24,000 bases of DNA from Nitratidesulfovibrio vulgaris str. Hildenborough (GCF_000195755.1 NC_002937.3:2659175-2683174), one strand, 5' to 3'. Positions 9,493-19,481 are shown, numbered from the stretch's first letter. Numbers and translations are program-made. Notes: a model not told the origin generated them from the letters alone.

Positions 9493-10485
9493 TCAGACCC
9501 GGCTGTCAATGACGTCTCCCGCATGCAGCCTGTGCAGCGTACCGTTTCCGGCCAGAATGCACAGCCAGCCTTCAGGGGTCATGTCCGCCACGCGCCCTTC
9601 GACAAGTTCATCGCCGTGGCGCACTCGCAGATGCCGGCCCACGATATCCGAAAGTTCCTTCCAGCGTGTGATGACGGCCCCGGTGTCTCCCTCGCGCAGT
9701 GCACCGTACCAGTGTTCGGCACGTTCCAGAAAGGCGCGGGCGACATCAGCCCTTGCGACAGGTCGGCCGCACTCCGTCTGCAGCGACGTGGCGGCGACGC
9801 CCGCATCGACGAGGGCTTCCGCCGGGGTACTCACATTCACCCCCACGCCGGTGACGACCCAGTCCACCATGTCGGCGACGAGTCCCACCTCGGTGAGGTT
9901 GCCACAGACCTTGAGCCCCGCCATGAGCAGGTCGTTGGGCCATTTGACCTCCGGCATGAGGCCCGTCACGGCCTCGACAGCCTCTGCGGCGGCGACCGCC
10001 GTCATGAGGGTCACCAGCGGGGCCGCCTGCGGAGAAAGGCGGGGACGCAGCACCAGCGACACATACACGCCACCCTGCGGCGAGACCCATGGTCTGCCCG
10101 TACGCCCTCGCCCTGCCAGCTGCTGTGCGGCCATCACGACAGTGCCTTCGCAGGCACCGCCTACGGCAAGCGCCACGGCATCGCGATTGGTCGAGTCGGT
10201 GCTCTCGTGCCAGTGCAGACCGACCTTGCCGAACACCTCTGTGGCAAGTCCGCGCAGTACCTCTGCCGCCTCGAAGGGGGCTGTGGTCCTGTCCAGCCTG
10301 TAGCCGCGCCGCGTCACCGCCTCGATGACATAGCCCGCCGCACGCAACGCCCTGACATGCTTGCCCACGGCAGCGCGACTGACCCCGAGTTCCCTTGAAA
10401 GCTCCTCGCCGGAGCACCATCCATCGGCCTCGAACAAGCGTTCGAGTACTCGACGACGGGTCCCGTTTCTGCCCCTGTCGTCCAT
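9493..10485 (-). CDS. birA: Bifunctional biotin-[acetyl-CoA-carboxylase] ligase / bio operon repressor
   Basis: Start chosen at the internal ATG 10485 (MDDRGRNGTRRRVLERL). An N-terminal winged HTH is present (SGEELSRELGVSRAAVGKHVRALRAAGYVIE). The biotin-binding loop is GRGRTGRPWVSPQGG. The tracked ORF runs 146 codons further upstream, across the bioB promoter region. Confidence 0.9.
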   Translation of the reverse strand: MDDRGRNGTRRRVLERLFEADGWCSGEELSRELGVSRAAVGKHVRALRAAGYVIEAVTRRGYRLDRTTAPFEAAEVLRGLATEVFGKVGLHWHESTDSTNRDAVALAVGGACEGTVVMAAQQLAGRGRTGRPWVSPQGGVYVSLVLRPRLSPQAAPLVTLMTAVAAAEAVEAVTGLMPEVKWPNDLLMAGLKVCGNLTEVGLVADMVDWVVTGVGVNVSTPAEALVDAGVAATSLQTECGRPVARADVARAFLERAEHWYGALREGDTGAVITRWKELSDIVGRHLRVRHGDELVEGRVADMTPEGWLCILAGNGTLHRLHAGDVIDSRV

Positions 10486-10490
10486 GATAA

Positions 10491-10523
10491 TTGTAAACCC
10501 TCTAGAGCGTCTCTCGTTGACAG
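10491..10523. promoter_or_regulatory. BirA-operator-like inverted repeat TTGTAAACC-N15-cGTTGACAg
   Basis: The left half-site matches the known BirA half-site TTGTAAACC exactly. The right half matches 6 of 9 positions of GGTTTACAA, with a 15-nt spacer. It lies 6 nt upstream of the birA start and about 45 nt upstream of the bioB ATG. Confidence 0.6.
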
Positions 10524-10567
10524 TAAGAGAAGGCACGGTTAGTCGCTCGCGATACGCGAGGTACACC

Positions 10568-11653
10568 ATGCACAACCTGCTCGAAAACCTGCGCCGCCGC
10601 CTTCTGGCGCAGCGCACCCCGGAACCGCTCCCCCCGACATCGCAGGGTCTTGCACGACCGTCCCATGACGTCGTCCGTGGGCCTTGCGATGCCGACATCC
10701 CCCCGGATGCCCGAAACACGATGCCCGAAGGCATCACCGTCGAAGAAGCGCTTGCCGTGGCAGAACTTCCGCAGAAGCACGCCCTCGACATCCTCGCCAC
10801 CGCACAGGCGATTCGTTCAGTCCACAAGGGCGGCCCCGCCGCGCTGTGCGGTATCGTCAACGCCAAGTCGGGCCGCTGCCCGGAAGACTGCGCCTTCTGC
10901 GCACAGTCCTCGCACCATGCCACGGGCAGTCCCGTGCATGCCCTTCTCGACGCGGAGACCCTTCTCCGTCGTGCAGAAGAGCTACGCCAATCCGGAGCCG
11001 AGCGCTATGGTATTGTGACGAGCGGCACGCGCCTGACCGTCCGTGAACTCGCCACGTTGTGCGAGGCGGCGGTGCGCATCCGACGCGAAACAGGCATCGC
11101 CCTGTGCGGTTCTCTGGGGCAGTTGACGCCTGACGCGGCCGCCTGCCTGAAAGAGGCGGGTTTTTCCAGCTACCACCATAACCTTGAGACTTCTAGAAGT
11201 TTCTTCCCGGCCATCTGTTCCACACACGCCTACGACGACGACATCGCCACCGTGCGTGCCGCACGGGCTGCCGGGCTGCGCACATGTAGCGGCGGCATCT
11301 TCGGCATGGGCGAGACCGACGCCCAGCGCATCGAACTCTCGGCCACGTTACGCGAACTCGACGTGGATTCCATCCCCGTCAACCTGCTGTCGCCCATTCC
11401 GGGAACCCCGCTGCAACACCGCCCCACCATGCCACCCATGCGCGCCCTTGTGAGCATCGCCATCTACAGACTCATGCACCCGGCGCGTGACATCCTCGTG
11501 TGCGGCGGCCGCGAGGCGACCCTCGGCCCGTGGCAGTCGTGGATATTCCTTGCCGGGGCCAACGGCATGATGGTGGGCAACTATCTTACAACCACGGGAC
11601 GGGATATGGCGGACGACCTTGCCATGCTCGCCACCCTCGGAGTCCGCGCATGA
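10568..11653 (+). CDS. bioB: Biotin synthase (radical SAM)
   Basis: CPEDCAFCAQSS is the radical-SAM CxxxCxxC motif. SYHHNLETS, RTCSGGIFGMGET, IPVNLLSPIPGTPL and CGGRE align with E. coli BioB. The ATG at 10568 has GAGG 6 nt upstream. An alternative ATG at 10721 would give an E. coli-like N-terminus but has no SD. Confidence 0.85.
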   Translation: MHNLLENLRRRLLAQRTPEPLPPTSQGLARPSHDVVRGPCDADIPPDARNTMPEGITVEEALAVAELPQKHALDILATAQAIRSVHKGGPAALCGIVNAKSGRCPEDCAFCAQSSHHATGSPVHALLDAETLLRRAEELRQSGAERYGIVTSGTRLTVRELATLCEAAVRIRRETGIALCGSLGQLTPDAAACLKEAGFSSYHHNLETSRSFFPAICSTHAYDDDIATVRAARAAGLRTCSGGIFGMGETDAQRIELSATLRELDVDSIPVNLLSPIPGTPLQHRPTMPPMRALVSIAIYRLMHPARDILVCGGREATLGPWQSWIFLAGANGMMVGNYLTTTGRDMADDLAMLATLGVRA

Positions 11654-13278
11654 GCACTTCTCCCTTCAACAGCCGTGTCGCGCCTATGCCGCATGATGAT
11701 GCTACCGCGCCCGTTTTGCATTACGCGCATGACGCTGCTGGTGCGCATGACGCTGCTGACGCTGCTGGTGCGCATGACGCTGCTGACGCTGCTGGCACGC
11801 CACCCTGTGCCGCCTCCCGCACAGCCCGCCTCCGCAGCCTCGACGCAGCCCATGTATGGCACCCCTTCACCCAGATGCGCGACTGGATGGGCAGTGAACC
11901 GTGCATCATCGACGCTGCCGACGGCAACCATCTCATCGACACCGACGGCAACCGCTATCTCGACGGCGTCTCGTCGCTGTGGACCAACGTCCATGGTCAC
12001 CGCCATCCGCACATCGACGAGGCCATACGACGGCAACTCGACCGCGTGGCCCACTCCACACTCCTCGGCCTTGGCGGTACGCCCTCCATCGAACTTGCGG
12101 CACGTCTCACCGCCATCGCCCCGGCAGGGCTCACACGCGTGTTCTATTCCGACAGCGGTTCCACCGCCGTGGAAGCGGCCCTCAAGATTGCCTTCCAGTA
12201 CCATCGGCAGGCCCCGGAGGGCGATGCACGCCGCACCCGCGTGATGGCCTTCAGCAACGCCTACCACGGCGACACCATCGGTTCCGTCTCGCTAGGGGGT
12301 ATGTCGCTCTTCCACGGCATCTACGGGCCGTTGCTCTTCGACCCCGTGCGCGCCCCCGCCCCGCACTGCTACCGCTGCCCTGCGGACCTCAGGCCGGAGA
12401 CATGCGGCATGGCGTGCCTCGGCGAGGTCGAACGCCTCATGCGGCACCACGGGCACGAACTGTGCGCCGTGGTCGTGGAACCACTGGTGCAGGGCGCGGC
12501 GGGGATGCTGGTGCAGCCCCGCGGCTGGTTGCGCGGGCTGCGCGACCTCTGCGACCGCCATGGCGTCTTCATGGTGGCAGACGAGGTCGCCGTGGGCTTC
12601 GGCAAGACGGGCACCATGTTCGCCTGCGAACAGGAGGGCGTCGTGCCCGACATGCTCTGCCTCGCCAAGGGCATCACCGGGGGCTATCTGCCACTGGCGG
12701 CGACCCTCGTCACGGAACACATCCACGATGGCTTTCTGGGGGGCTACGCCGACTTCCGTACCTTCTTCCACGGACACACCTACACGGGCAACGCCCTCGC
12801 CTGCGCCGCGGCCCTCGCCTCGCTCGACGTCTTCGAAGAGGAACGCACGCTGGAGACCCTGCGTCCGCGCATCGAACGACTGGCGACACTGCTGGCCCCG
12901 CTGAACGACCTGCCCCATGTGGGCGACATACGCCGCGTTGGCGTGATGACCGGCATTGAACTGGTCGCCGACCGCGAGACCCGCACCCCCTATCGCCCCG
13001 AAGAACGCATCGGCCATCGCGTGACCCTCGAGGCGAGACGGCGTGGCGTCATCGTAAGGCCGCTGGGGGACGTGATGGTGCTCATGCCCCCCCTCTCCAT
13101 CACGGAGACGGAGTTGGAGACACTGGTGCATACCGTACGCGGCGCCATCATCGCCGTCACCGAACACGGGGCGGACGGGGGATTGTGGACGAAGCGCCCT
13201 GACGGCCCGGACAACCCGGACAAGGCCAACACGCCGGACACACCGGACGGGGCTCGCACCGGGGAGACCGTGGTGTGA
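11650..13278 (+). CDS. bioA: Adenosylmethionine-8-amino-7-oxononanoate aminotransferase, with N- and C-terminal low-complexity extensions
   Basis: The ATG overlaps the bioB TGA (ATGA at 11650-11653). Motifs: HVWHPFTQM, SDSGSTAVEAALKIA, DEVAVGFGKTG, and LCLAKGITGG carrying the PLP lysine. At 542 aa it is longer than E. coli BioA (429 aa, recalled from memory). Confidence 0.9.
   Translation: MSTSPFNSRVAPMPHDDATAPVLHYAHDAAGAHDAADAAGAHDAADAAGTPPCAASRTARLRSLDAAHVWHPFTQMRDWMGSEPCIIDAADGNHLIDTDGNRYLDGVSSLWTNVHGHRHPHIDEAIRRQLDRVAHSTLLGLGGTPSIELAARLTAIAPAGLTRVFYSDSGSTAVEAALKIAFQYHRQAPEGDARRTRVMAFSNAYHGDTIGSVSLGGMSLFHGIYGPLLFDPVRAPAPHCYRCPADLRPETCGMACLGEVERLMRHHGHELCAVVVEPLVQGAAGMLVQPRGWLRGLRDLCDRHGVFMVADEVAVGFGKTGTMFACEQEGVVPDMLCLAKGITGGYLPLAATLVTEHIHDGFLGGYADFRTFFHGHTYTGNALACAAALASLDVFEEERTLETLRPRIERLATLLAPLNDLPHVGDIRRVGVMTGIELVADRETRTPYRPEERIGHRVTLEARRRGVIVRPLGDVMVLMPPLSITETELETLVHTVRGAIIAVTEHGADGGLWTKRPDGPDNPDKANTPDTPDGARTGETVV
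11725..11796 (+). repeat. In-frame tandem repeat inside bioA (18-bp partial unit plus 2 x 27 bp)
   Basis: gcgcatgacgctgctggt, then gcgcatgacgctgctgacgctgctggt, then gcgcatgacgctgctgacgctgctggc. These encode AHDAAG-AHDAADAAG-AHDAADAAG. Confidence 0.9.
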
Positions 13279-13661
13279 AGACCGTCCACGAAGGAACGTT
13301 CCTCTTTCCCGCCACCCATCCGCTCTTCGCAGACCACTTCGAAGGTGCGCCCGTGGTGCCCGGTTCGTTGCTGCTTCGCGCCTTCGTGGAGGAAGCGGGC
13401 ACCGTATGGCCCGACTTTGCGACGCAGGGCGCCACGGGCTTTCGTTTCCGGCGGTTCGTGACGCCGGGTCGTCACCCGTTTCGCATGGAACGTACCGACC
13501 TCACTGTGCGCTGTACACTCATGGACGCTCAGGGGGGCATACTGGTGCGAGGCGATCTGACGACGGCAGACGCGACGGGCGATGCCGGAACGGATAACGA
13601 CAGAACGGGCGCTGACGGAGAGGCGGCCCTGCATACCTCGCCAAGAGGAACAACGGCATGA
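13275..13661 (+). CDS. Truncated FabZ-like hot-dog protein (His motif present, catalytic Glu position is Arg)
   Basis: The GTG start overlaps the bioA TGA (GTGA at 13275-13278). [23 protein letters not shown] aligns residue-for-residue with E. coli FabZ [34 protein letters not shown] aligns with EARFKRPVVPG. It lacks the N-terminal ~40 aa of FabZ and has a D/G/T-rich tail. Confidence 0.65.
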   Translation: [128 protein letters not shown]

Positions 13662-14686
13662 CTCTGCACCAGAAGGATGGTGACGACTACGCGGGGGGCA
13701 CGCGACGCCCCACCGCCGTCGCTCACGCGCAGCATGACATCGCCCCCGGAGTGGTGCTCATCCTCGGCGGTTCCAGCACGCTGGGGCTTGCCGCAGGTCG
13801 TGCGCTACTTGCCGCGGGACATCCCGTGGCCCTGACAACCCGCAATGCCGAAGGAACAGGGCGCATCCTTGCCGCCCTCGCCCCCGGTGAAGCGGGCATA
13901 CCCGACGGCGGCACTGACTTCTCCGGCAACAGGCCTGACCTCTTCAGCAACAGGCCTGACCTGTCCAACGGCGGGGCAGACAGGTGCCGTGTCTGTAGAC
14001 ATACGGGACACGCACCGTATGCCGTGCTGCCCGTCGAGAGTGCCGAATCATTACCCGACCGGTGCGCGGACGCACTGGGGACCCCGCCCCGCCACATGCT
14101 GGACTTCATGCATGGCCGCTTCGAGACGCTGGTCGCTGCCGCCCACGTCCACGACATCGACCGGTGGGCCATCGACGACATCGCCCTGCGGGCCCGATGC
14201 CTTCGCGCCGTCAGTCGGGCGATGCTGGCGGAGAGGGCCGGACGTTGTGTCTTCGTCTCCTCGACGGCAGCAGCCATGGCAGCGCACGGGCAGGGCTACT
14301 ATGCCGCAGCCAAGGCAGCGGGCGAGGCCCTGTACCGCAGTGCGGGTCTTGAACTGGCATCACGCGGGGTGACCACCTGTTCGTTGCGCCTCGGGTGGGT
14401 GGATGCGGGGCGCGGGGCGGACTTCATACGGGGCAATGACGCGCCCTACCGAGACGGGACTGCCCACGCCGTGCCCACCCCACACACCGCCACACAGCTT
14501 GCCGATGGCGTCCCCACCGGGCGTCTCGTCACCGTGGACGAGGTCGTGGGCACGCTCATGTTCCTCCTCTCCGGGGCGGCGACATCGCTCAACGCCACCC
14601 ATATCACCCTCGACGGCGGCTTCACCGCCGGAAAGCCCCGCGCCGGAACGCCGCGCACAGGTTCAGGAACACGGCGCACGGGCTGA
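13658..14686 (+). CDS. Short-chain dehydrogenase/reductase, FabG-like (3-oxoacyl-ACP reductase candidate) with a large insertion
   Basis: The ATG overlaps the upstream TGA (ATGA), with AGAGGAA upstream. Rossmann motif ILGGSSTLGLAAG. Catalytic pattern VSSTAA...GYYAAAKAA (S, YxxxK). The C-terminus GRLVTVDEVVGTLMFLLSGAATSLNATHITLDGGF is typical of FabG-type SDRs. Confidence 0.8.
   Translation: MTLHQKDGDDYAGGTRRPTAVAHAQHDIAPGVVLILGGSSTLGLAAGRALLAAGHPVALTTRNAEGTGRILAALAPGEAGIPDGGTDFSGNRPDLFSNRPDLSNGGADRCRVCRHTGHAPYAVLPVESAESLPDRCADALGTPPRHMLDFMHGRFETLVAAAHVHDIDRWAIDDIALRARCLRAVSRAMLAERAGRCVFVSSTAAAMAAHGQGYYAAAKAAGEALYRSAGLELASRGVTTCSLRLGWVDAGRGADFIRGNDAPYRDGTAHAVPTPHTATQLADGVPTGRLVTVDEVVGTLMFLLSGAATSLNATHITLDGGFTAGKPRAGTPRTGSGTRRTG
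13926..13967 (+). repeat. In-frame 21-bp tandem repeat x2 inside the SDR gene
   Basis: gcaacaggcctgacctcttca / gcaacaggcctgacctgtcca, encoding (G)NRPDLFS / NRPDLSN inside the SDR insertion. Confidence 0.9.
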
Positions 14687-14785: not shown

Positions 14786-15193
14786 ATGCCAGAGACACCA
14801 GCATTCGACACGGTACGCGCCATCGTCGCCGACATCTTCGAGGTGGCACCCGAAACCCTCACGCCCGCGACCCGTCTCTTCGAAGACCTGCCCTGCGAGT
14901 CCATCGACCTTCTGGAAATCGGCGCGGGTCTCAACCGCCGCTGCCGCATCCCCGTGGATGACGACGCGGCCTTCCTGCGTTCACTTCGCATCCACCTCAT
15001 GGAGGCCGAGAGAGAGAGACGCGATGCGACACAGCACCTTGCCAGCGTCTACCCGCACCTCACAGCACGGCGGGTGGCATCCATCGTCGAGGCACTGCGC
15101 GCCCCCGCATCACCGCCTGTGCTCACGCTGGCTGACATCACCGCCTACGTCGACCACGTACGCAACGACGTGCAGCGCACCGGAGAGGTTTGA
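14786..15193 (+). CDS. Atypical acyl carrier protein (PP-binding domain with ~50-aa insertion)
   Basis: VRAIVADIFEVAPETLTPATRLFEDLPCESIDLLEIGAGLNRRCRIPVDDDAA aligns with E. coli ACP [53 protein letters not shown]. The Ser of CES aligns with Ser36. The SD is weak (GAGAAG). There is a 99-nt gap from the SDR stop. Confidence 0.7.
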   Translation: MPETPAFDTVRAIVADIFEVAPETLTPATRLFEDLPCESIDLLEIGAGLNRRCRIPVDDDAAFLRSLRIHLMEAERERRDATQHLASVYPHLTARRVASIVEALRAPASPPVLTLADITAYVDHVRNDVQRTGEV

Positions 15194-15470
15194 CCGGCAT
15201 GGACGGGGAAAGAGACAGGGGACAAGGGGGGCATGGACACCAGGCCCCGTCACTCCTGTCCTCTCACCGACGTGCGGGCGGCACCCCGCAGTCAAGGGAC
15301 AGGGCGGCCCCCCGGACTGGCACACAGACTGACGTGCCCACCGGCACCCCGACTGGCCCCTGCACTGCACTGACGGGCGCACAGACACCGCCTTGCGAAG
15401 TAGCCCGACAACCATCAGCACCCCGCCTGCACTCCATCTGTGGGCCCTATCCACCTGACATCGCATCGCC

Positions 15471-16919
15471 ATGAACGACTCCGCACATCACCAACGCACG
15501 CAAGACGCCACGGGCAACCGCATGCGCGTCGTCATCTCCGGCATGGACTGCGTCACGCCCTTGGGCGACGACGCCAGCCTTGCCGCCCACCTACACCACG
15601 GCACCCCGCCCTTCATGCCCGCCCCGGTGCTGCCGGGGGCCGCATGGTGCCCTGTGAACGCCTTCGACCCGGCACAGGCGACAGACCACTGGCGACACCG
15701 CCGCTATCTCTCGCGGGGCGGTCTCTTCGCGCTGGCTTCGGCCCTCGGCGCAGCACGCGATGCTGGATGGGGGGCATCGGCCCCCGACGGGGCGGCGCTG
15801 GTCACCGCGCATGGTCCCAACCTCGACATCACCTCGGACTTTCCGCACTGCCATTGCGACGTCTCCGGGACTGGCGACACACAAGGCGATGCGCCCTCTC
15901 CCTGCGCGACCTCGACGCATGGAGGCCCCACCGCCGCGCACGGCGTCAATGGCATGAATGGCGTGGATGGCCCAGATGAGGCGCGACATGGCCTCTCCCG
16001 CGATACGGCAGGACTCGACCACCCCGGACTTGATGCCCTGTGGCTGCTGCGCTGGCTGCCCAACACCGCCGCCTCGGCCATCGCGCAGCGCCTCGGCATC
16101 CATGGTGAAGGGCTGGTCGTAGGCACGGCCTGCGCCGCAGGCTTGCAGGCACTGGGAGAGGCATACCGCCGCGTGCGGCACGGTCTCGCCCCCACGGTGC
16201 TGGCTGCGGGCGGCGACTCCCGCCTCTCTGCGGGGGGGATGCTGGGCTACGCACGGGCCGACGCCCTGTGGCACTCCAACGCGCGCCCGGCCTCCCATGC
16301 CGAGGCCCTGCGTGCCATGCGGCCCTTCGACGCCGCGCATGGCGGCTTCGTCCCCGGTGAAGGCGGTGCGGCCTTCGTACTGGAGACGGAAGCCGCTGCA
16401 TGTGCGCGGGGGGCTACAATCCACGGCGAGATTCTCGGATTCGGCGCGACACTGGACGGTGCCAGCCTCACGGCCCCCGATGCCACGGCGCATCACGCCG
16501 AATGCGCCGTGCGCAAGGCCCTCGATGACGCAGGGTTCACCCCCGGCGACATCGCATGGGTGGCAGCGCACGGCACCTCGACACCGCGCGGAGACGCCGC
16601 CGAAGCCCTGCTTCTGCAACGCGTCTTCACCGACGCGGGGCACCGCCCCGCCGTCACCGCCCTCAAGTCATGGACAGGTCACCTCGCCTCCGCCTGCGGA
16701 CTCGCCGAATGCGCGCTGATGCTGCGGGCCGCCCGGTGCGGCGTGCTGCCGTCCATCCGCAATCTCGACACCCCATGTTCCCCGGCAGCGGAAGGACTCG
16801 ACCTCGTGCGCGAACCACGTCCCTTCCCGCAAGGGCCGGGACTCATCCAGAGTTTCGGCTTCGGGGGGCAGAATGCCGCGCTCATCGTCATGCCTGCCGT
16901 AACAAGGGCGGGCCAGTGA
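15471..16919 (+). CDS. Beta-ketoacyl-ACP synthase, KAS I/II (FabF/FabB) type, Cys-His-His triad
   Basis: VVGTACAAGLQALGEA carries the active Cys. AAHGTSTPRGDAAE and LKSWTGHLASACGLAE carry the two His. Also PFDAAHGGFVPGEGGAAFVLE and a C-terminal SFGFGGQNAALIV. There is a ~68-aa insertion at residues ~121-188. The start could instead be ATG 15522 (MRVVISGMDCVTPLG). Neither start has a clear SD. Confidence 0.85.
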   Translation: MNDSAHHQRTQDATGNRMRVVISGMDCVTPLGDDASLAAHLHHGTPPFMPAPVLPGAAWCPVNAFDPAQATDHWRHRRYLSRGGLFALASALGAARDAGWGASAPDGAALVTAHGPNLDITSDFPHCHCDVSGTGDTQGDAPSPCATSTHGGPTAAHGVNGMNGVDGPDEARHGLSRDTAGLDHPGLDALWLLRWLPNTAASAIAQRLGIHGEGLVVGTACAAGLQALGEAYRRVRHGLAPTVLAAGGDSRLSAGGMLGYARADALWHSNARPASHAEALRAMRPFDAAHGGFVPGEGGAAFVLETEAAACARGATIHGEILGFGATLDGASLTAPDATAHHAECAVRKALDDAGFTPGDIAWVAAHGTSTPRGDAAEALLLQRVFTDAGHRPAVTALKSWTGHLASACGLAECALMLRAARCGVLPSIRNLDTPCSPAAEGLDLVREPRPFPQGPGLIQSFGFGGQNAALIVMPAVTRAGQ

Positions 16920-17512
16920 TGCCGCGTCACGCCATGCCGACAGCACACGACGCCATCTTCACGGACGGCACACAGAGGGCCTCGCACACGTCCCCTTGCC
17001 CCCCGCATCTCCCCGGTGAAGCACTCCCCGACGACACGCCCCCCGGTTTCGTGCTTCTGGACGCCATCACGCGCTACGACACCTCGGGGTTGACCGCAGT
17101 GCGCCAGTACAGCCGCACCCCGGCATGGCACGCGGTGGAAGCCATGGCACAAGCCGGGGCCATGCATCTGCGGTTTCTGGGCGACTTCTCAGACCATGCC
17201 TTCCTGCTTGGCATCACCGACTGCCCTTGGCCCGAGACGCCGCTTGACGGCTGCTGCCGTATCGAAGTGCGCCTCACAGCCCTCACACAGGGGGCGGCAT
17301 CCTACGACATGACCCTTTCCCTCGATGGCCCTGATGAGGTGACCACAAAGCAACAGACGGTGGGGCGTACTGTAGAGCACGCGGTACGGTGGGTGGGGCA
17401 GGGTGCGATGCTCTTCGGTCGCGTCCCCTACGACAACATATACCGCGAGGCCGTCCTCGCGCCACGCTACCGGAGACTCTTCGCATGGCTCACCCGTTCC
17501 TGCACCGCCTGA
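16919..17512 (+). CDS. Second hot-dog-fold protein, FabZ/FabA-like, retaining EAMAQ but lacking the His-containing segment
   Basis: The ATG at 16919 overlaps the KAS TGA (TGATG). [22 protein letters not shown] resembles FabZ [36 protein letters not shown] matches FabZ LILEAMAQATGIL. The [14 protein letters not shown] block is absent. The N-terminal ~45 aa are low complexity. Confidence 0.5.
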   Translation: [197 protein letters not shown]

Positions 17513-18759
17513 CCCTGCGCCTCGACGCGCAACGCGCTGCGGGTCTCGACCGCACTGTCATGACACCGGAGACGCGTACGACTCGCCACGTCATCCTCGA
17601 CGGTCAGCGACTCTGCAACTTCGCCTCCAACGACTATCTCGGCCTTGCCGATGATGCGGCATGGCGTGCCGAGGTCGCCGACTGCTTCGCCCGCCACCCT
17701 GCTTCGGGCACGGCATCACGCCTTGCCGCCGGACATTCCGCGCTGGTGGCCGAAGCCGAAGCTGCATGGGCCGAACATTTCGGATATGAGAGTTGCCTCT
17801 TCCTGCCCAGCGGCTATCAGGCCAACCTCGCCGTGGTGACGGGGCTGCTGCACACGGGCGACACCCTCTTCATCGACAGGCGTATCCACGCCAGCATGGC
17901 GCGGGCAGTGCCCCTGTGTGGGGCACACCCGGTCACCTATCCCCACGGCGACCTCGCCCGACTCGACCGCAGGCTGACCGCGTGGAGACACGAAACAACC
18001 GCGGAGACGGCATCAGCCGCACCTCTCACAGAGGGGGCGCCCCTGTCGTCCCCGCCCGCGACATGTCCGACGGCATCCCCGCCGCCGCACGGGGACGCCA
18101 GCCCCGTCATACTCACCGAATCCCTCTTCAGCATGGACGGCACAGTGACCTCCATGGACGCCCTCGCCACCCTGCGGTCACGACACGGGGCCTTCGTCAT
18201 CCTTGACGAGGCCCATGCCTGCGGTGCCTTGGGGCAAGGCGGGCGCGGCCTTGCATGGGGACAAACGGAGAATGCCCCCGCCGCCGACGTCATCGTGGGC
18301 ACGCTGGGCAAGGGACCGGGATTCTTCGGTGCGTTCGTGCTCATGCCGCGCATCGTGCGCGAGTCGCTTGAGAACTTCGCCTCTGCCGTCATGCACTCCA
18401 CGGCCCTGCCTGAAGCCCACGCCGCTGCCGTGTTGCGTCTGCTGCCCCGCATGGCGGGCATGGACGACGCACGCGCACGCCTCGCCCGCAACGCCCGCGC
18501 ACTGCGCGAGGGGCTGGCCGGTTGCGGCCTGCCAGTGCATGGCGACGCCCATATCCTGTGCATTGAGACAGGTGACGAGGCACAGGCAACGCAACTGGCC
18601 CGAAGACTTCGTACCCAAGGGGTGCTGGCCCTCTCTGCGCGACACCCCACCGTCCCCCACGGGCACGCCATCGTGCGCTTCAGCGTCACCGCCGCCCATA
18701 CCGACGACGACATCACGTATTGCAAGGAGACCGTTCACACATGTCTGCACACGAGATGA
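17485..18759 (+). CDS. bioF: 8-amino-7-oxononanoate synthase
   Basis: The ATG at 17485 has GGAG 9 nt upstream and overlaps the upstream gene by 28 nt. Motifs: NFASNDYLGL, SGYQANLAV, ESLFSMDG, DEAHACG, and GTLGKGPG carrying the PLP lysine. There is an A/P/S/T-rich insertion at about residues 167-206. Confidence 0.9.
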   Translation: MAHPFLHRLTLRLDAQRAAGLDRTVMTPETRTTRHVILDGQRLCNFASNDYLGLADDAAWRAEVADCFARHPASGTASRLAAGHSALVAEAEAAWAEHFGYESCLFLPSGYQANLAVVTGLLHTGDTLFIDRRIHASMARAVPLCGAHPVTYPHGDLARLDRRLTAWRHETTAETASAAPLTEGAPLSSPPATCPTASPPPHGDASPVILTESLFSMDGTVTSMDALATLRSRHGAFVILDEAHACGALGQGGRGLAWGQTENAPAADVIVGTLGKGPGFFGAFVLMPRIVRESLENFASAVMHSTALPEAHAAAVLRLLPRMAGMDDARARLARNARALREGLAGCGLPVHGDAHILCIETGDEAQATQLARRLRTQGVLALSARHPTVPHGHAIVRFSVTAAHTDDDITYCKETVHTCLHTR

Positions 18760-19481
18760 ACCACGCGACACCACGTCTGCCTGCGCCCCTCTTCGTCACC
18801 GGTACGGATACGGGGGTGGGCAAGACGGTGGTGAGTCTGTTGCTGATGAGGGCGCTGTTCAGACGGGGGATGGTCCCCTTCTACGCCAAGCCCATGCAGA
18901 CGGGCTGCCGCGACCCGTATGACACGGACAGCGACGCAGCCTTCGTCTACCGGCATGTGCCGGAATTGGCGGAAAGGGATCCTGCGGAAGCGGTGGGATG
19001 GTGCTTCAGGGCACCCAAGGCTCCGCTCCACGCCGCGCGGGACGAACGCAACGGCGTGGAGACGGAAGACCTGATGCGCAGGTTGGCAATCCTGCGCGCT
19101 ACACATGCCTGCCTCGTTCTGGAGGGTGCGGGCGGGCTCATGGTGCCCTTCACCGCCGACGCGCTGTGCGTCGACTGCATCCGGGCGGCGGATGCGCGCC
19201 CCGTGCTTGTGGCGCGGGACGGTCTGGGAACCGTGAACCACACCCTCCTTTCCGTGGAGGCGATGACCCGAAGAGGCGTGACGCCGGCAGGGATCGTTTT
19301 CGTTGCATCCGGAAAACGCCCCACCCCTTCGGACCTTGTCCACGACAACATGGAAGCGGTGGCCATGCTGTCAGGGATATCCGTGAGCGGCATCGTGCCG
19401 CCCATCCTTGATTTTCATGCGCCGCCCGAAGCTGCGCTGACCGTTGCCGACGCCGTCATCGACGCGGCACTCGGCCTGTAG
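18741..19481 (+). CDS. bioD: Dethiobiotin synthetase
   Basis: FVTGTDTGVGKTVVS is the P-loop, nearly identical to E. coli FVTGTDTEVGKTVAS. The ATG at 18741 has AAGGAG 11 nt upstream. An alternative ATG at 18756 forms an ATGA overlap with the bioF stop. Confidence 0.9.
   Translation: MSAHEMNHATPRLPAPLFVTGTDTGVGKTVVSLLLMRALFRRGMVPFYAKPMQTGCRDPYDTDSDAAFVYRHVPELAERDPAEAVGWCFRAPKAPLHAARDERNGVETEDLMRRLAILRATHACLVLEGAGGLMVPFTADALCVDCIRAADARPVLVARDGLGTVNHTLLSVEAMTRRGVTPAGIVFVASGKRPTPSDLVHDNMEAVAMLSGISVSGIVPPILDFHAPPEAALTVADAVIDAALGL

Follow-up and report, generated by a model that had tools for sequence, protein, structure and literature searches.

The synthesis of the pimeloyl moiety of biotin in bacteria without BioC/BioH, BioI/BioW, BioZ or BioE is only partly solved, and the locus considered here raises a question of just this kind: what is a FabF-like beta-ketoacyl-ACP synthase (KAS) doing in the middle of a biotin operon, and does the loop insertion that it carries contribute anything to its work? 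The window, by which we mean the whole 24,000-nucleotide stretch of DNA that was analysed, holds the operon. We consider it highly probable that chain elongation in the Desulfovibrio-type biotin operon is the dedicated task of this KAS and that its insertion is a disordered loop.

The biotin operon and what is already known of it

The KAS gene belongs to a cluster with the gene order bioB-bioA-hotdog-SDR-ACP-KAS-hotdog-bioF-bioD, the elements of which are as follows:

10361..13278, + strand: bioB and bioA, given as maximal ORFs, the true starts being later (TIGR00433 and TIGR00508, both above their cut-offs)
10491..10523, + strand: BirA operator, TTGTAAACC-N15-CGTTGACAG, an exact match to the published D. 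vulgaris site
13275-13661, + strand: FabZ-like hot-dog protein, 128 aa (Pfam/NCBIfam, synteny)
13658-14686, + strand: SDR/FabG-like reductase, 342 aa (Pfam/NCBIfam, synteny)
14786..15193, + strand: operon-dedicated ACP, 135 aa, immediately upstream of KAS (Pfam PP-binding)
15471..16919, + strand: KAS of the biotin operon, FabF-like beta-ketoacyl-ACP synthase, 482 aa (ORF, Pfam, AlphaFold2)
16919..17512, + strand: second hot-dog gene, about 197 aa, between KAS and bioF (tblastn)
17389-18759, + strand: bioF ORF, with a likely start near 17485 (NCBIfam TIGR00858)
18720-19481, + strand: bioD (NCBIfam TIGR00347)

The BirA operator occurs once in the window and in none of 100 shuffles; Rodionov et al. 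2004 (PMC545781) give the identical sequence, in their Table 1, as the BirA site of Desulfovibrio vulgaris. The order of the biotin operon, this exact operator and a 99%-identical protein on record together mean that the KAS corresponds to DVU2563. Orthologues of the operon ACP lie upstream of KAS in 8 related loci, and also in distant ones. The ATG of the second hot-dog gene overlaps the stop codon of KAS; its product has no Pfam match, and the C-terminal 150 or so residues are kept at the same position in 9 related loci (L003, L004, L007-L010 and L034-L036; tblastn). The 277-bp gap between ACP and KAS (15194-15470) is filled by a 94-codon ORF (15190-15474), which we rejected as probably not a gene, being of low complexity, with no Pfam or NCBIfam family match and no tblastn match in 30 related loci.

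A role for DVU2563 in making the pimeloyl precursor was predicted in 2004, the genes of the operon being proposed as a new pimeloyl pathway (Rodionov et al., PMC545781), and the RB-TnSeq study of 2023 found DVU2558-DVU2565, along with DVU1220, to be specifically needed without biotin, transposon mutants in the cluster growing poorly only when biotin was absent (Trotter et al., PMC10102598). The authors of that fitness study offered the speculation that hydrophobicity is lower in these active sites than in those of fatty-acid synthesis, and favour an elongation starting from malonyl-ACP (PMC10102598); a carboxyl-terminated primer for DVU2563 is likewise a published hypothesis (PMC545781, PMC10102598). 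The Desulfovibrio-type cluster is a genetically supported pimeloyl pathway, known from genetics and sequence, and our literature searches found no biochemical characterisation of it after PMC10102598. A preliminary description of this DNA had proposed a KAS dedicated to biotin synthesis, and the operon, its synteny and the published RB-TnSeq phenotype bear this out; on that same phenotype (PMC10102598), loss of the gene is not without effect on biotin synthesis. The assignment is correct but not new, and since the role has been published already, finding it again adds little.

A FabF-like enzyme with an elongation-type active site

The KAS protein matches both ketoacyl-synthase domains in Pfam, PF00109 and PF02801. 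Its best NCBIfam model is fabF (TIGR03150), at 228.4 bits against a curated cut-off of 493.75 and so below it, and no FabH or KAS III model is found among its family matches. In Thermus and Bacillus FabF the catalytic Cys, His and His are matched, residue for residue, by the motifs TACAAG, AHGTSTP and GHLASACG of this protein, and an alignment with E. coli FabF and FabB gives the same correspondence for E. coli FabF. The principal active-site features are given here, with FabF residues numbered, as throughout, according to mature E. coli FabF:

16131..16133, + strand: active-site Cys221, equivalent to FabF Cys163 (alignment; 118/118 family members)
16569..16571, + strand: His367, equivalent to FabF His303 (alignment; 118/118 members)
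16665-16667, + strand: Lys399, equivalent to FabF Lys335 (alignment; 118/118 members)
16680..16682, + strand: His404, equivalent to FabF His340 (alignment; 118/118 members)
16857..16874, + strand: GFGGQN gating loop, its Phe464 equivalent to FabF Phe400 (alignment)

The full set of catalytic and malonyl-handling residues (C221, H367, H404, K399, T369, T371, D329, T334 and F464) is present in each of the 118 members, and with these invariant the enzyme would be expected, from its sequence, to perform a normal decarboxylative condensation with malonyl-ACP. An AlphaFold2 model built on an 80-sequence alignment has a mean pLDDT of 87.7 and a pTM of 0.87, and its top PDB matches in Foldseek are all FabF, with a TM-score of 0.89 normalised to the target. 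The earlier assignment to the elongation type, Cys-His-His rather than KAS III, was sound, as the aligned triad and its three motifs attest.

Phylogeny and linkage to the biotin genes

A maximum-likelihood tree was built from 77 sequences, including E. coli FabF and FabB, the FabF of the same genome and 15 housekeeping FabFs of related genomes. The operon KAS family forms a separate clade on a long branch with 100/100 support, and E. coli FabF and FabB, the own-genome FabF and all 15 housekeeping FabFs lie outside it; the own-genome housekeeping FabF, which is encoded elsewhere, groups with E. coli FabF. This supplies the phylogenetic placement among KAS I and KAS II enzymes that had been suggested as a check on the gene: the KAS stands in a fully supported clade of its own, apart from housekeeping FabF and from FabB.

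The gene order is kept in the three relatives that were fetched in full. A wider linkage scan took one genome per species. Its top 10 KAS loci, those above 200 bits, are the ones that belong to the family; the 70 lower-scoring loci are mostly unrelated FabFs of Planctomycetota and Chloroflexota that have GFGGQN in common with it. All 10 of the high-scoring loci have the operon ACP or SDR upstream and/or the hot-dog gene, bioF or bioD downstream, as far as the flanks reach, and the operon context is found in 0 of the 70 others. The 10 are labelled as Desulfovibrionaceae, Desulfobacteraceae, Syntrophobacteraceae, Desulfoluna, Syntrophales, Elusimicrobia, two "Proteobacteria" MAGs and one Methanosarcinaceae MAG. 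The family signatures G-D-S-R, ALWxLRxLPN and GFGGQN, which are invariant columns of the family alignment, are all present in the KAS described here. Within the Desulfovibrionaceae the distribution is patchy, with an orthologue in only 8 of 120 other genomes sampled, the remaining matches being ordinary FabF.

Two loci deserve separate mention. The MAG labelled as a Methanosarcinaceae archaeon (L045, JBQVLY010000058.1) has a hotdog-SDR-ACP-KAS arrangement with a KAS 37% identical to this one, complete with the DSR and ALW signatures; the locus could have been acquired horizontally, or its contig could have been wrongly binned. From the genus of the window genome a single genome was sampled (G044, 98% complete in 240 contigs), and it gave no KAS match at E <= 1e-40, a threshold at which its housekeeping FabF also went unmatched; the biotin operon may be absent from some close relatives.

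The loop insertion

The feature that drew attention to this gene is an insertion ahead of the active-site Cys. Its bounds were taken from an alignment with 79 other family members, as the columns in which 80% or more of these have gaps, with these results:

15843..15857, + strand: PHCHC (residues 125-129), outside the insertion; it belongs to the ordinary family loop and varies there (relatives)
15858..16007, + strand: 50-aa lineage-specific low-complexity loop insertion, residues 130-179 (family alignment, AlphaFold2)

It had been described as an insertion of about 68 residues (15831-16034), rich in Cys, His and Gly. The insertion is real, but its flanks TSDFPHCHC and AGLDHPGLD align with the ordinary family loop, and it is therefore 50 residues long rather than 68. 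The other residues without a counterpart in the 79 members are 1-13, 271-276, 438-440 and the last four of the protein. As to composition, the richness in Gly stands, and Asp and Thr are enriched with it, giving the segment a low-complexity character; that in Cys and His came from the flanks. Together these two make up 9 of the 68 residues of the longer stretch, as against 6.8% elsewhere (p = 0.04), but only 4 of the 50 in the insertion proper (8%, the remainder of the protein having 7.6%; binomial p = 0.54).

Counted between the fixed anchors Pro125 and Leu187, the loop has 8-11 residues in most of the 118 family members, 9 in E. coli FabF and in the own-genome FabF and 11 in E. coli FabB. 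It has 61 in the query and 28, 40 and 77 in the query's nearest relatives; the range across the family is 8-77. The expansions fall in two clades that are separate on the tree, one with loops of 23 and 33 residues and the other with loops of 20-77, and their inserted sequences cannot be aligned with each other. The sequence is no more constant than the length: in place of PHCHC the closest distinct relative (72% identical) has PRCGRH, and the one after it PRAGHP, the relatives overall having FPRCGRH, FPRAGHP, FPAACGR, FPEIQDG and CPRIENG at this position, and no Cys/His pattern is kept in the nearest relatives, at 72%, 64% and 62% identity. Even a 99%-identical strain has two substitutions in this segment, Cys in place of His and Lys in place of Asn, though this is no significant excess (Fisher p = 0.16). 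In the AlphaFold2 model, pLDDT is below 50 at residues 136-170 and 172-175, and there is no secondary structure in residues 136-175, which is the outcome of the structural modelling of the insertion that had been proposed.

Metal binding by the PHCHC element had been suggested. A functional or metal-binding role finds no support in a segment that has no conserved Cys/His pattern, is absent from most family members, shows no enrichment in Cys and His and comes out as disordered in the AlphaFold2 model; where orthologues have the insertion at all, it is hypervariable in both length and sequence. Absence or variability in orthologues had been named beforehand as an observation that would count against the idea. 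Because it is disordered, fast-changing and missing from most relatives, a functional metal site in it is very unlikely. Most likely it is a disordered low-complexity expansion of a surface loop, arisen within one sub-lineage, still changing in length and with no specific function. It ends about 6 residues before the ACP-docking segment, which puts it on the surface near the ACP site, but since its sequence is not conserved we assign it no docking role. Disorder, as predicted, would still be compatible with a conditional role, such as partner binding, in this one species.

The 177-nt stretch of DNA holding the insertion is unique in the genome, without a second copy apart from a 24-nt chance match. 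An origin as a mobile or repeated element was considered and rejected, there being no second copy and the repeats found being weak. A weak 9-nt tandem repeat in the region is probably chance. An imperfect 21-nt direct repeat, 76% identical (15830-15850 and 16020-16040), brackets the insertion with its copies in different reading frames; this too is probably chance, though it could also have been left by whatever event gave rise to the expansion.

Similar features are seen in the neighbouring genes. The SDR (13658-14686) has low-complexity segments absent from its orthologues, including a 21-bp tandem repeat at 13914-13967; BioF (17389-18759) has a segment rich in Pro, Ser, Ala and Thr, with 41 gap positions relative to its relatives; and the second hot-dog protein has gaps or insertions relative to its orthologues. 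Loop expansion therefore appears to be general in this operon.

Family-specific residues at the putative acyl-pocket and ACP-docking positions

The family alignment gave a by-product of more use than the insertion, namely a set of positions that are fixed within the family and unlike FabF:

16215..16223, + strand: Asp249-Ser250-Arg251, at the position of FabF Glu191-Lys192-Ala193 (118/118 members)
16248..16250, + strand: Tyr260, at the FabF Phe202 back-gate position (117/118 members)

Trp191, at the position of FabF Phe133, is also invariant, and Gln467 replaces FabF Thr403 in all members; the position of FabF Leu342 is Ala, Ser or Thr in the family (Ala406 here). In FabF, Ile108 and Phe202 form the back gate of the acyl pocket (10.1101/2021.02.13.431092), the alignment around Ile108 being ambiguous for the present family. 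Our literature search found no published list of FabF pocket residues with Ala193 in it, and the equivalence to KasA was used instead, in which Glu199-Gly200-Pro201 form the acyl site and contact bound ligand (PMC5025758). The phmmer alignment to KasA starts at query residue 193 against KasA 143, which sets Cys221 on KasA Cys171; Asp249-Ser250-Arg251 would then lie on Glu199-Gly200-Pro201, assuming no gap between, as in the ungapped Thermus alignment. It is plausible, on this residue correspondence, that the invariant Arg251 would serve as an anchor for the omega-carboxylate of a dicarboxyl primer.

A second group of changes concerns the docking of ACP. FabF contacts AcpP through Arg127, Lys128 and Arg206 and through the segment from Ile129 to Phe132 (PMC7138838). 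The three basic residues are Pro185, Gly186 and Asp264 in the KAS, and across the family these positions are variable and often acidic or neutral; the segment is represented by the family motif L-x-A-L-W. Tyr79, in place of FabF Lys69, is invariant. The operon ACP, for its part, has N-R-R or neutral residues where E. coli AcpP has Glu47 to Glu49, a counterpart to the disappearance of basic docking residues from the KAS. It also has an insertion of about 45 residues after helix III that, unlike the one in the KAS, is conserved in all 8 aligned orthologues. Taken together, Asp249-Ser250-Arg251, Tyr260 and the lost docking residues suggest, as far as sequence can indicate, a pocket that would bind an omega-carboxylate and an enzyme that would work with a dedicated ACP.

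Proposed role and alternatives

In the mechanism that we propose, the KAS, with the operon ACP, the reductase and a split dehydratase, would carry a malonyl thioester through two condensations with malonyl-ACP, from C3 to C5 to C7, to give pimeloyl-ACP with no methyl ester of the kind that E. coli BioC/BioH use as a disguise. Arg251, Ser250, Asp249 and Tyr260 occupy acyl-site positions where FabF has small or hydrophobic residues; they would bind the primer by its free omega-carboxylate and probably set a limit to chain length. The replacement of FabF Arg127, Lys128, Arg206 and Lys69 would fit the atypical operon ACP as partner, rather than housekeeping AcpP. The complete scheme has Asp249-Ser250-Arg251 and Tyr260 turning the acyl pocket into an omega-carboxylate site, free dicarboxyl-ACPs being elongated iteratively from malonyl to glutaryl to pimeloyl with a stop at C7, the lost basic docking patch and an ACP lacking the acidic end of helix II separating this mini-FAS from housekeeping synthesis, and the insertion non-functional. 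We put it forward tentatively, as a serious possibility that is somewhat more likely to prove wrong than right.

The number of condensations is where another reading comes closest. The enzyme might, like BioZ, perform just one, between a pre-formed glutaryl thioester and malonyl-ACP, in place of two rounds from malonyl; BioZ itself is a precedent for a glutaryl primer (PMC7645780, PMC12625853), and a pocket with one fixed Arg would be better suited to primers of a single length than of two. We think this unlikely, given that the complete reduction and dehydration set of the operon and its own ACP suit an iterative cycle, that no source of glutaryl-CoA is encoded in the cluster, and that the fitness-study authors, too, favour elongation from malonyl-ACP (PMC10102598).

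Two other readings are less likely still. That the KAS is simply a second housekeeping FabF, in the bio operon by chance and with ordinary fatty-acyl specificity, would agree with its best family matches, which are fabF models, and with its FabF fold. It is hardly credible for a protein that scores so far below the fabF cut-off (228 against 494 bits) and sits on a long, fully supported branch of its own, in a genome with a normal FabF elsewhere, and that combines invariant polar or basic substitutions at acyl-site and ACP-docking positions with a linkage to bio genes across phyla and a biotin-specific mutant phenotype (PMC10102598). That the Cys/His-rich insertion is a module which binds metal or senses redox state, and so regulates the KAS or supports it, is only slightly less improbable. 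The PHCHC motif and the further His and Cys residues of the 68-residue stretch (p = 0.04) speak for it, as does a host that is an anaerobe rich in metalloproteins; against it, the 50-residue insertion is not enriched (p = 0.54) and is absent from most of the family, no Cys/His pattern survives even in the relatives at 72%, 64% and 62% identity, the 99%-identical strain has already exchanged a His for Cys and an Asn for Lys there, and AlphaFold2 gives the segment no structure.

Comparison with known systems

With the FabF/KAS II enzymes (E. coli FabF; Thermus 1J3N; Burkholderia 4DDO), the KAS has in common the thiolase fold, the Cys-His-His triad, the Lys, the Phe gate and the GFGG loop, and the 9 residues of FabF at the insertion site compare with 8-11 in the baseline members of the KAS family. 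It differs in being only some 25-30% identical, in a separate clade and below the equivalog cut-off; in the changes Ala193 to Arg, Phe202 to Tyr, Phe133 to Trp and Thr403 to Gln, with the loss of the basic ACP-contact residues; and in being dedicated to the bio operon with an ACP of its own.

BioZ, a KAS III of alpha-proteobacteria, is likewise a condensing enzyme dedicated to the pimeloyl moiety and takes a primer with a free carboxyl. Unlike the present KAS, however, it resembles FabH and has a Cys-His-Asn triad; it carries out one condensation, on glutaryl-CoA that comes from lysine catabolism, and lacks both a dedicated ACP and a reductive set. The BioC-BioH route of E. coli resembles the proposed one in taking a malonyl thioester to a pimeloyl thioester by two FAS-type elongation rounds, but there the carboxylate is masked as a methyl ester and the housekeeping FabB/FabF are borrowed, whereas neither bioC nor bioH occurs here and the KAS, ACP, KR and DH make up a private set.

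The closest comparison is with DVU2563 itself, in the extended bio operon DVU2558-DVU2565 of D. vulgaris Hildenborough, where the gene order is the same and the operator identical; the KAS is either DVU2563 or its copy in a nearly identical strain. There is no substantive difference from what was published on it (PMC545781, PMC10102598), the loop insertion and the invariant Asp-Ser-Arg and Tyr being features that those papers do not discuss. Of these, it is the family-invariant residues unlike FabF, namely Arg251, Ser250, Asp249 and Tyr260 along with Trp191 and Gln467, that make the most useful lead: if the proposed role is true, they would explain how a FabF-type enzyme can handle substrates with a free carboxylate.
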